From Eledone cirrhosa (Eukaryota), in assembly GCA_964016885.1 (NCBI GenBank), contig OZ024762.1:25730001-25794000 (forward strand): DNA of 64,000 nucleotides, in the 5' to 3' direction. Of the stretch, positions 32,736 to 36,246 are shown piece by piece. How positions within the stretch are numbered: the stretch's first letter is position 1; every line of letters starts with the position of its first letter. The position numbers were made by a program, and so were the translations under genes. The notes under the pieces were generated by a model that was not told the origin of the DNA, made no database searches, and was given only the letters and a program-made list of their open reading frames with translations.

Positions 32736-32792
<57 letters not shown>

Positions 32793-32830
32793 TAAATAAG
32801 TCAAATGTTTAAAATTTGGCTTTGTTTATT

Positions 32831-32885
32831 ACTGCCATATATATTTCGGTGACAGCCATCTTTGGCTGTGACCTCTTCAGGCAGT
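32831..32885 (-). ncRNA. Hammerhead motif (family F), left-arm copy, AUG at the cleavage triplet
   Basis: ACTGC-CTGAAGA-GGTCACAGCC-AAAGAT-GGCTGTCACC-GAAA-TATATA-TG-GCAGT. Confidence 0.65.
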
Positions 32886-33852
32886 CCGAATTAGTATGGT
32901 AGAGACGAGTACACATGTTGTTGAGGTGTATAACTTTGTCAATACTCTGATATGCCCAGTTCCTGGTTGGGTTGTTATTTCACTGAGGAACTGGCATCAT
33001 ATGAATTTAAACAAACGAATTTCAGCGTTAAAGAGCCTCTTCTCCTCTCATTGGTCAGTTGTTAGAACATTCCTCAGTCAAAAGTCTATAGAAATTCGTT
33101 CTGAGGCAAGCCAATCTGTAGTTGTTGTTCTTGTTATTGTTAGGTACATCTGACCTCTATTCTTATGTTGGTAGTGGTGTTGTTGTTGGAGTCAGCTAAA
33201 AAAACGGGAGATGGTTGCAGGAGGGATGAAGAAACACACACACACAGATACTTCTAAATTGTCAGCAGCAGCAAGACATAAGCTGACCACAACACTACCA
33301 AATTAGGGTAGAGGTCAGATGTACTTAACAATAGCAAACACTACAGGGGGCCTCACCCCAGAAAGAATTTCTATAGACTTTGGACTGAGGAATGCTCTCA
33401 AAACTGACCAATGGGAAGTTTGACCTTACAAATCTTATAACAATGAGATGGGTATAACACACACACATTTTATTCGATTATTTTATTTTATTTTGTTCCT
33501 TTACCATCTTACTCCTTCTACCACCTTATCACTTTTTTTAGCTGACTCCAACAACAACACCACTACCAACATAAGAATAGAGGTCAGATGTACCTAACAA
33601 TAACAAGAACAACAACTACAGATTGGCTTGCCTCAGAACGAATTTCTATAGACTTTTGACTGAGGAAATGTTCTAACAACTGACCGATGAGAGGAGAAGA
33701 GGCCCTTTGACGCTGAAATTCGTTCGTTTAAATTCATATGATGCCAGTTCCTCAGTGAAATAACAACCCAACCAGGAACTGGGCATATCAGAGTATTGAC
33801 AAAGTTATACACCTCAATAACATGTGTACTCGTCTCTACCACACTAATTCGG

Positions 33853-33907
33853 ACTGCCTGAAGAGGTCACAGCCAAAGATGGCTGTCACCGAAATATATA
33901 TAGCAGT
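33853..33907 (+). ncRNA. Hammerhead motif (family F), right-arm copy, AUA triplet
   Basis: ACTGC-CTGAAGA-GGTCACAGCC-AAAGAT-GGCTGTCACC-GAAA-TATATA-TA-GCAGT. Confidence 0.8.
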
Positions 33908-34422
33908 AATAAACAAAGCCAAATTTTAAACATTTGACTTATTTATTTTATTTTATTTTACATTACTCCGGAGTAACCAGACCAACCTGCGCACTTCGTC
34001 GAGTGCTCCAATCTGCATACTGAGGTGTTGGTATACAACCAACATATACTAAAAAAAAATATATATATATATACTCCGTCAATAAGTATACTACGAATCT
34101 TATGAGCCATTGATACCAGAACCGGGTGCGATCAATACTGATCGTGGCATGAGCTGATCGAAAACGAAACGCGTGTAACACGTGAATAAACATATTGGAA
34201 ATTCGATACCTCGTCCATACTTATTATTATAACACTCTGCTTGCTACAAGCCCAAAGTACATCGTGGAGACTACGCATGGAGTGCTAAGTGAACCAACAG
34301 TAACTGGATGTTACAATCCCCATATATATATATATATATATATACATATATATATGTATATATGTATATATATATATAGATAGGTAAATATACACGGGTG
34401 TGTATGATTGTGTATAGAAGAT

Positions 34423-34816
34423 TATATTAATAAGAGGAATTCCAACTTTGTCTGATTTACTCGTTTTATTTACAATCCTTTAAAATATATATAATGGTAT
34501 TATAATGAAATAGTATGATAGAATATTAAATTCTAAGTGTTAATTGAACAAGTACTTTCATGCTTTCGCAATCTTCAGGTTCATAAAATGAAATAGTATG
34601 AGTTTGCAATTTTCAAACAGTTGAAAATTGCAAACTTGACTGTCACCACATATTATGAACCTGAAGATTGCGAAAGCATGAAAGTACTTGTTCAATTAAC
34701 ACTTAGAATTTAATATTATATCATACTATTTCATTATAATACCATTATATATATTTTAAAGGATTGTAAATAAAACGAGTAAATCAGACAAAGTTGGAAT
34801 TCCTCTTATTAATATA
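34423..34816. mobile_element. Fold-back insert: ~164-bp arms (34423-34586 / 34653-34816) with HHR family G and a nested inner hairpin (34601-34636)
   Basis: Arms are near-perfect reverse complements; inner AGTTTGCAATTTTCAA-ACAG-TTGAAAATTGCAAACT. Confidence 0.9.
34656..34694 (+). ncRNA. Minimal 39-nt hammerhead motif (family G); mirror copy 34545-34583 on minus strand
   Basis: TGAAC-CTGAAGA-T-TGC-GAAA-GCA-T-GAAA-GTAC-TT-GTTCA; palindromic AGTACT stem III, CUU triplet. Confidence 0.72.
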
Positions 34817-34835
34817 TATATATATATATATATAT

Positions 34836-34882
<47 letters not shown>

Positions 34883-34885
<3 letters not shown>

Positions 34886-35426
34886 CGTTTCTGAATTTGT
34901 TTAGCAAGATTCTTTATCTGAAATCGTGTGTTGAAACCGATATTGTTATACTTTGGGAGGGTCATGTTGCCAATAAGAAACACACGCACCAGTTGCTTTC
35001 ACTTCAATTTATTATAATAAATTTATAAATTTAGGAATTTATAAATTTCCGGTTGGTTGGTTGGTTCAAAACCAGATGGTTGTTTATATATTGTCAAAGG
35101 TCTTTCGTCACACATTCTGTGACCTCTTCAGTGACTGGGGATTCTTTTCTTTGTTTTTGTGCCTCTCCTTTGTTCTGTCCTACGCCATTTTGTTTCTGTG
35201 TGTGTGTTCTTTAGCTAAAAGAATACCCGGTCACTGAAGAGGTCACAGAATGTGTGACGAAAGAACTTTGACAATATATAAACAACCATCTGGTTGTGGA
35301 ACCAACCAACCAACCGGAAATTTATAAATTCCTAAATTTATAAATTTATTATAATCAATTGAAGTGAAAGCTACTGGTGCGTGTGTTTCTTATTGGCAAC
35401 ATGACCCTCCCAAAGTATAACAATAT
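34883..35426. mobile_element. Fold-back of a Penelope-type 3' end (arms ~34941-35146 / 35218-35426) with HHR family H
   Basis: Both arms end in ATGACCCTCCCAAAGTATAACAATAT, similar to the 3' terminus of the ORF-bearing element at 1753; CTACGCCATTTT is also shared with ~2049. Confidence 0.85.
35230..35272 (+). ncRNA. Hammerhead motif (family H); mirror copy 35093-35135 on minus strand
   Basis: GTCA-CTGAAGA-G-GTCAC-AGAATGT-GTGAC-GAAA-GAAC-TT-TGAC. Confidence 0.75.
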
Positions 35427-35431
35427 ATATG

Positions 35432-35713
35432 TATATTGTCATATTTGGGGAGGGTCATATTCTTATAATATTGCCAGAAATAATAATAGAACACACTCAC
35501 TGTTTGGTTTGGGTTGGTCAATCAATGATAAACCTTGATTGGCAAATAAATTAACTATGGAGATATGAAAGATACAGAAGCGAAAACCAACCAAACAGTG
35601 AGTGTGTTCTGTTATTATTTTTTCTGGCAATATTATAACAATATGACACTCCCCAAATATAACAATATTGGTTTCAACACACGGTTTCATATAAAACACC
35701 TTGCAAAACAAAT
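35432..35713. mobile_element. Short fold-back of the same Penelope 3' terminus (arms ~35432-35508 / 35590-35668), too short to include the HHR
   Basis: Reverse complement of 35577-35668 closely matches 1753-1840. Confidence 0.85.
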
Positions 35714-35718
35714 ATATA

Positions 35719-35778
<60 letters not shown>

Positions 35779-35780
<2 letters not shown>

Positions 35781-36246
35781 AAGTTATATTTAAAATTGTT
35801 GGGTTACAACTAGTAAATATTTATAACTGATATAAAAGCACTCGACAAATACTTGGAGTATATTTACAATATTAAATAAATGGAAAACTATATTTATAAA
35901 ACCATATTTATTTCATTATATATATTTCGGGGATATCATATTAACAATATGCTATGCCTTCATCAGACAAAATACAATATAAACAGTTTTATAGATAAAT
36001 ATATTCGACATACCGTAATAAACATCAACTTCATTTGAAGAGGTTCACTCTAGCAGTCTAGAGTGAACCTCTTCAAATGAAGTTGATGTTTATTACGGTA
36101 TGTCGAATATATTTATCTATAAAACTGTTTATATTGTATTTTGTCTGATGAAGGCATAGCATATTGTTAATATGATATCCCCGAAATATATATAATGAAA
36201 TAAATATGGTTTTATAAATATAGTTTTCCATTTATTTAATATTGTA
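35779..36246. mobile_element. Fold-back insert with ~189-bp arms that appear perfect (35865-36053 / 36058-36246, 4-nt loop CAGT), each with HHR family C
   Basis: Centre TTGAAGAGGTTCACTCTAG-CAGT-CTAGAGTGAACCTCTTCAA; CTGATGA at 36145 and GAAA at 36183, mirrored at ~35905-35981. Confidence 0.92.

Follow-up and report, generated by a model that had tools for sequence, protein, structure and literature searches.

What kind of DNA forms five palindromes within 3.5 kb? The locus lies in a 64,000-nt stretch of the genome of Eledone cirrhosa (GenBank assembly GCA_964016885.1, contig OZ024762.1, positions 25,730,001 to 25,794,000; hereafter the window, with positions counted from its first letter), and holds five fold-back inserts, E1 to E5, set among arrays of the dinucleotide TA. 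A first-pass annotation, made from the sequence alone, had described them as non-coding mini-elements with hammerhead ribozymes, and had offered two origins—two-sided target-primed insertion of ribozyme-processed RNAs at a (TA)n break, or a self-propagating class of fold-back retrozyme-like elements. We find that the five inserts are almost certainly stubs—pseudo-long terminal repeats (pLTRs) or 3′ ends—of endonuclease-bearing (EN+) Penelope-like retroelements (PLEs). The first of the two origins, with the RNAs derived from Penelope-like parents, fits the data: the stubs are probably independent, 5′-truncated insertions into (TA)n, in which reverse transcription was target-primed on both sides and began at two fixed sites on the RNA.

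All five inverted repeats lie where they had been annotated (Table 1), with 423/439 matching columns between the arms of E1, 186/197 in E2, 203/210 in E3, 73/80 in E4, and 194/195 in E5 (arm identity 91–99%). The annotated positions hold for the fold-backs themselves but leave out the tails of E1 (33961–34051) and E2 (34378–34422), and the (TA)n described as separating most of the inserts is not the whole of what lies between them: E1 and E2 are split by ~240 nt that match, among the fetched loci, only copies of the window itself, E3 and E4 by ~6 nt. Where at least four unrelated families had been proposed, four DNA lineages (E1, E2, E3/E4, and E5) can indeed be told apart, but all appear to be Penelope-like, and E4 is related to E3 (85% identity across 75 nt at the 3′ end).

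Evidence for the parent elements comes from longer copies elsewhere in the 3.0-Gb genome, where searches with 30–40 candidates scored per query recovered dispersed relatives of all five inserts. The E5 family has many copies that are 100% identical across 188 nt and inverted pairs that span from ~230 nt to 5.9 kb. One of its loci (L122) consists of a pLTR, an intact 737-aa open reading frame (ORF), and a second pLTR, and another (L121) combines an inverted truncated copy with the same pLTR–ORF–pLTR arrangement. The E5 unit measures ~4.3 kb from its predicted start to its short end, with a 3′ untranslated region (UTR) of 1.8 kb. Read by eye against the published description, the 737-aa protein (P0001) shows the Hydra motifs RWR, DKT, CxCX5C, and CxxC/CxH; it had no Pfam match and no PDB match below E 0.65, and its look-alikes in the Atlas carry HTH_animal, GIY-YIG, and RVT_1 domains at 0.96–0.99. 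A second Hydra ORF is colinear with E1 in four loci (L017, L141, L142, and L143). It is 43–51% identical to the E5 ORF across matched parts and encodes DKT, the CxCX5C linker, and CxxC/CxH, the RWK-type motif being seen in E5 only.

Broken ORFs are likewise colinear with E2 (L199, also L190, L183, and L195) and with E3 (L213, also L208, L202, and L211). GIY-YIG matches in the broken ORFs of E1, E2, and E3 had E values of 1e-4 to 8e-4, and RVT_1 matches reached 3e-4 in E2 and 3e-5 in E3, both sets falling mostly under the Pfam cut-offs. The E2 and E3 ORFs both encode a CX4CxxC linker and CCHH-type residues, with GxKF and a DKG-like motif additionally in E2 and DKS in E3. Several neighbouring ORFs were rejected as parents: those adjoining E3 in L181 and E2 in L182 are separate insertions across TA arrays, and for those adjoining E2 in L183 and L184 and E3 in L209, as first taken for parents, colinearity was lost.

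Three hallmarks of EN+ PLEs are present in these families—a single ORF with reverse transcriptase (RT) and GIY-YIG domains linked to the repeat (intact in E5; broken in E1, E2, and E3), pLTRs in partial tandem with an inverted 5′-truncated copy and a tail (L121 and L122; 102 pairs, described below), and a type I minimal hammerhead in the pLTR (eight motifs). Judged by protein motifs, E1 and E5 most likely belong to the Hydra clade, which is marked by DKT, CxCX5C, and CxxC/CxH without CCHH. E2 and E3 show the C-terminal EN, CX2-5CxxC linker, and CCHH of the Neptune/Nematis type and are probably members of one or other of these two clades, which motifs alone cannot separate. The description of the inserts as non-coding thus holds for the window copies but not for their families, which encode RT-EN proteins.

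Hammerheads were found as annotated, reading outward in four inserts, on the + strand in right arms and on the − strand in left arms. The eight motifs are of the type I minimal form, at 33858 (E1), 34661 (E2), 35234 (E3), and 36145 (E5) on the + strand and at 32880 (E1), 34578 (E2), 35131 (E3), and 35966 (E5) on the − strand. This outward polarity follows from the position of the motif in the pLTR and the head-to-head joining of pLTR ends. The descriptor used, loosened after a stricter version had recovered just 3/8 motifs, found none in 1000 dinucleotide shuffles of the region. Hammerheads were absent from the matches of an Rfam scan of the region and from the best 150 of 656 entries of another scan; the Rfam matches listed were to microRNA-type models only, on repeats and hairpins. 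The left hammerhead of E1 (core at 32880) has G at its cleavage position. A short palindrome makes up Stem III in E1, E2, and E5, and 4/6 pairs can form in that of E3; PLE hammerheads with a Stem III of this kind would need a dimer. In 5/19 other E4 loci, a related hammerhead with an intact core on the same strand sits ~70–80 nt upstream of the point at which the window copy starts. E4 in the window thus appears to be an E3 relative truncated short of its hammerhead.

The longer 3′ extension that had been noticed on one arm proved to be a one-sided tail: each family has two fixed 3′ ends, a short end and a tail end, 45–90 nt apart. Of the 102 head-to-head pairs, four of which belong to the window, 95 are tailed on exactly one arm, seven on neither, and none on both; in the first 73 pairs, a partial or diverged tail could be seen on one arm in 3/6 of those scored as lacking one. 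The longer arm may be tailed or untailed. Mapping succeeded for 71 of these 73 pairs; in the 62 that were tailed and had ≤65 nt between the arms at the junction, the tailed arm is longer in 20, the untailed arm in 18, and the two are within 10 nt in 24. A lone inverted tail fragment abuts the 5′ end in 9/173 untailed copies and in 0/132 tailed ones. Neighbouring ends within 1.5 kb are mostly head-to-head (83, versus 7 tail-to-tail and 3 in the same direction). At two loci, L145 (4896–9058) and L210 (6044–9231), the outer end of the inverted arm lies inside the element, near the start of the direct arm; we liken these arms to the products of L1 twin priming, a model for inverted 5′ segments. 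A third locus, L148, also has an inverted arm whose outer end is inside the element, resembling an L1-like 5′ inversion. Separately, the tails of E1 and E5 have short motifs in common, in families that are otherwise unalike as DNA: both tails start with a small hairpin, and a 10-nt word recurs farther along.

On two-sided target-primed insertion, an RT-endonuclease, likely dimeric, would nick both strands of the TA array and prime two complementary DNAs (cDNAs), one from the distal and one from the proximal RNA site. Either cDNA would extend until it stalled or reached the 5′ end of the RNA, meaning the capped start and, apparently in E2, also the hammerhead cut. The two cDNAs would then be joined by a template jump or by microhomology.

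The 5′ ends accumulate at an initiator-like A, where non-genomic G is over-represented. In a search for a pattern with a non-genomic base ahead of the predicted start A, set against a control A position, E1 gave 415 matches versus 35 and E5 gave 59 versus 24; on inspection, 29/30 and 28/30 loci were true truncations. G precedes the start A of E5 in 35/59 matches versus 4/24 at the control (hand count, p = 0.0005), and for E1 the comparison of G with A gave p = 0.019. Copying of a 5′ cap would leave such an extra G. In E2, 18/35 arms end within 5 nt of one another, ~31 nt downstream of TATAAA in long copies. Upstream of the E1 and E2 clusters stand what we take to be CCAAT boxes, and the 5′-end hot spot of E3 is followed by a presumably YY1-like word. 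An initial account, in which small palindromes set the hot spots, gave way to one based on transcription starts; palindromic joining remains compatible with an E5 cluster 4 nt downstream of the start.

Some E2 copies apparently start at the predicted ribozyme cut instead. Here the search gave 86 matches with a non-genomic base, and among 30 loci inspected (no matched control) 15 were truncated exactly at the cut and 15 were substitutions in full copies. L297 and L305 have E2 coding sequence fused to the cut end in like orientation (by eye), an arrangement that suggests a template jump. The annotated role of ribozyme-processed RNA is thus supported only in part, by these 15/30 E2 loci; against it, none of the five window junctions, and no 3′ end in the window, coincides with a hammerhead cut site. 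The fetched loci showed no pile-up at the cut sites of E1, E3, or E5, but their selection favoured longer copies, and the cut sites of E1 and E5 are AT-rich; a walk across the fetched loci stalled at indels in most E2 arms.

Several observations weigh against two-sided insertion from capped or ribozyme-cut RNA, or leave it less sharply defined. The choice of loci was not random: they were taken for their likeness to the window copies or for a pattern match. At 116/305 mapped ends nothing inverted adjoins the 5′ junction (a further 18 ends, unmapped or incompletely contained, were excluded), and two-sidedness is therefore not visible in every insertion. Scored as G versus non-G, the excess in E1 does not reach significance (35 in the first 100 listed versus 7/35, p = 0.14), and 5/14 of the G's in 30 inspected E5 loci could derive from the sister arm. 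Loop-free palindromic junctions with G on both arms also fit a U-turn of a single cDNA. Start sites and hammerhead cleavage are themselves read from genomic copies, and we infer them on that basis. Finally, sister arms share subfamily alleles, with mismatches at 12/72 sites in E2 (0.53 in non-sisters), 14/75 in E3 (0.44), and 3/62 in E5 (0.29) and permutation p values of about 0.001 or less, E1 being without informative sites; this fits one template or source for both arms and does not discriminate between models.

The second arm might instead arise by self-priming: a single cDNA, or an antisense template, would fold back and serve as its own template, and one tail would afterwards be trimmed off by the endonuclease. 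We regard this as unlikely, though it accounts for several of the observations. Junctions often show 0–16 nt overlaps or small palindromes, perfect loop-free palindromes with an extra G on both arms are explained equally well, and sister arms do share more alleles than non-sisters in E2, E3, and E5. Steps of this kind were also proposed in passages of PMC3846280 (an antisense template) and PMC8557442 (EN-mediated resolution that gives the tail). Against it, a cDNA begun at the short site cannot template a tail; nevertheless, in 18/38 pairs of unequal length the untailed arm exceeds the tailed one. Tail-only inverted arms occur, and arms that differ by kilobases are joined with overlaps of just 0–5 nt.

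If the palindromes were a self-propagating, retrozyme-like class, transcribed and re-inserted as a unit, the central junction should be constant within a family. It differs from copy to copy: the window junctions of E1 and E3, both off the hot spots, have one genome match each at up to one mismatch, and fold-back spans are continuous from ~200 to 5900 nt. One E5 junction does occur unchanged three times (twice on C12, once on C14), short copies greatly outnumber long ones, and passages of 10.64898/2026.07.22.740005 describe non-autonomous retrozymes derived from PLEs. The recurrent junction sits at the start-site hot spot, however, where independent run-offs would converge, and the retrozymes of that source are head-to-tail tandems of a fixed monomer with a hammerhead in each, not fold-backs; lengths here vary, and arms run colinearly into RT/GIY-YIG genes. 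The second origin offered by the first-pass annotation is thus very improbable.

Chimeric fold-backs made in sequencing or assembly are the least credible explanation and very unlikely: the region is highly repetitive and no listed read or contig spans a junction of the window itself with 31-nt flanks, yet the window arm pairs differ by 1–14 substitutions (4/5 pairs also by indels) and carry a tail on one arm only, private variants of sister arms are mostly unshared (163 versus 33 shared), as expected for real insertions ageing in place, and raw Illumina reads from another study hold left-to-right-arm joints of other E3 copies (34961 to 35388; 83 and 108 reads, 2 starts each). Joints in “opposite strand” reads were discarded as evidence, as they can arise also from reads that fit either arm.

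Going back to two-sided target priming, a more general form of it may extend to EN+ PLEs of different clades: twin priming would be coupled and asymmetric, and on opposite strands of the nicked target one subunit would always begin at the distal site and its partner at the proximal one. Stubs would in that case preserve the capped start of the RNA and, for E2, germ-line hammerhead cleavage. We give this broader proposal an even chance.

Untailed ends run into (TA)n in 120/133 cases, and tailed ends into (TA)n or (CT)n in 97/103; target-site duplications are unreadable in (TA)n flanks. Nesting is general, and the window is an extreme case of it: among 194 loci of 3.2 kb, another of the eight tested families is present in 61 and two or more are present in 6. 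Each insertion presumably leaves fresh TA targets on both sides, which would explain why elements nest in TA arrays.

Table 1 Features of the fold-back cluster (positions within the window)
Feature	Position	Strand	Remark
(TA)n target array left of E1	32738..32788	.	sequence
E1 left arm, untailed; putative 5′-truncated 3′ end of Hydra-clade PLE	32788..33224	-	
E1 right arm, ~760 nt of predicted 3′ UTR/pLTR; family start-site hot spot near 33736	33204..33960	+	
E1 tail, one-sided 3′ extension of ~90 nt	33961..34051	+	
Spacer between two TA arrays	34075..34315	.	matches in other fetched loci: none
E2 tail, ~45 nt	34378..34422	-	
E2 left arm; putative 3′ end of Neptune/Nematis-type PLE	34423..34616	-	
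E2 right arm, untailed; starts at the family's predicted transcription start	34617..34812	+	
E3 tail, 56 nt	34884..34939	-	
E3 left arm, 270 nt; putative 3′ end of second CX4CxxC/CCHH-type PLE	34940..35208	-	
E3 right arm, untailed, 210 nt; junction to left arm genome-unique	35217..35426	+	
E4 left arm, untailed; probable E3 relative	35433..35512	-	
E4 right arm with tail at 35669-35713; apparently truncated downstream of the hammerhead present in longer E4 copies	35513..35713	+	
E5 tail, ~80 nt; corresponds to 5′ UTR in the autonomous copy, ending ~49 nt before ATG	35779..35858	-	
E5 left arm; pLTR of young, putatively Hydra-clade PLE; starts at predicted start A	35859..36057	-	
E5 right arm, untailed	36058..36245	+	
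Sixth (TA)n-inserted element end, overlooked in the first-pass annotation; fold-back layout also elsewhere	36262..36440	-	

Other repeats share the window. The sixth element end has a counterpart at 38322–38500, and the two belong to a family that is inserted in (TA)n, is abundant (128 matches in 64 fetched loci), and forms fold-backs tailed on one side; a hammerhead core is absent from 13/14 copies shown of the family of 36262–36440. A near-perfect 264-nt fold-back at 43444–43707, with a left tail to about 43403, has longer family members with a hammerhead-like core just upstream, mostly with C replacing U4. Hammerheads are also borne by other stubs: a relative resembling E5 at 38640–38800 (− strand; 38752), an older fold-back of E5 at 9692–10059 whose centre is deleted, and an E4-family copy at 1642–2009, its hammerhead at 2009. 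A very abundant short interspersed repeat is present at 36477–36585, 40719–40895, and 44629–45142, one pair forming an inverted repeat. Very long TA-rich arrays lie at 10036–22111 and 25403–30297, and at 46960–64000 a G-rich unit of 29 nt is repeated over 17 kb, with a strong skew between strands.

The layout itself has been published: passages of PMC8557442 and PMC3846280 describe complex EN+ PLE insertions with an inverted 5′-truncated copy joined head-to-head, a tail at one end, partial tandems, a pLTR hammerhead, and a (TA)n target, and PMC8557442 calls the origin of inverted pLTRs and one-sided tails undefined. The tails given there are 30–40 nt, whereas those found here are 45–90 nt, and they are “often” or “optionally” one-sided, compared with 95/102 pairs here and none doubled. 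The passages of both sources make no mention of a start-site pile-up or an extra G. E1 and E5 resemble members of the Hydra clade such as Hydra-1_Obim (as presented in parts of PMC8557442) in motifs, (TA)n target, and hammerhead, but would be families distinct from the published ones, with units longer than the “<3 kb” reported (E5, ~4.3 kb). In the supplement of PMC8557442, (TA)n is given as the target of Hydra-1_Obim and of three Octopus Naiads.

Two other systems invite comparison. For Poseidon PAc of Anolis, passages of PMC11167929 report that both strands are cut and extended in vitro, with a predicted dimer, an AT-rich target, and a tail defined by two fixed sites at which RT begins, much as in the elements described here. 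The start sites differ in location (inside the ORF in PAc, in the 5′ UTR in E5), and these passages report no strand difference in their use and no role for hammerhead cleavage, whereas in the present pairs each arm uses a different one of the two sites, and E2 copies apparently start at the cut. The non-LTR retrozymes treated in parts of 10.64898/2026.07.22.740005 likewise have a type I hammerhead, an origin in PLE pLTRs, and ORF-less copies, but are head-to-tail repeats of a fixed monomer, in contrast to head-to-head stubs of variable length with coding parents. A search of literature titles and abstract openings, with subscription papers outside its coverage, found neither the coupling rule nor a cap-derived G. 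The families are new and their kind is known; within this limited search, the counts for tail pairing, arm length, and extra G appear to be added here.

For annotation, such palindromes should be classed as PLE stubs rather than as novel RNA genes or hairpin elements. With its intact protein and defined RNA ends, the young E5 family lends itself to a test of the mechanism. The one-tail rule is near-absolute, holds in four families and at least two clade groups, and applies whichever arm is longer, which makes it a sharp prediction for the existing in vitro system—and one that concerns the insertion of Penelope-like elements, the sisters of telomerase.

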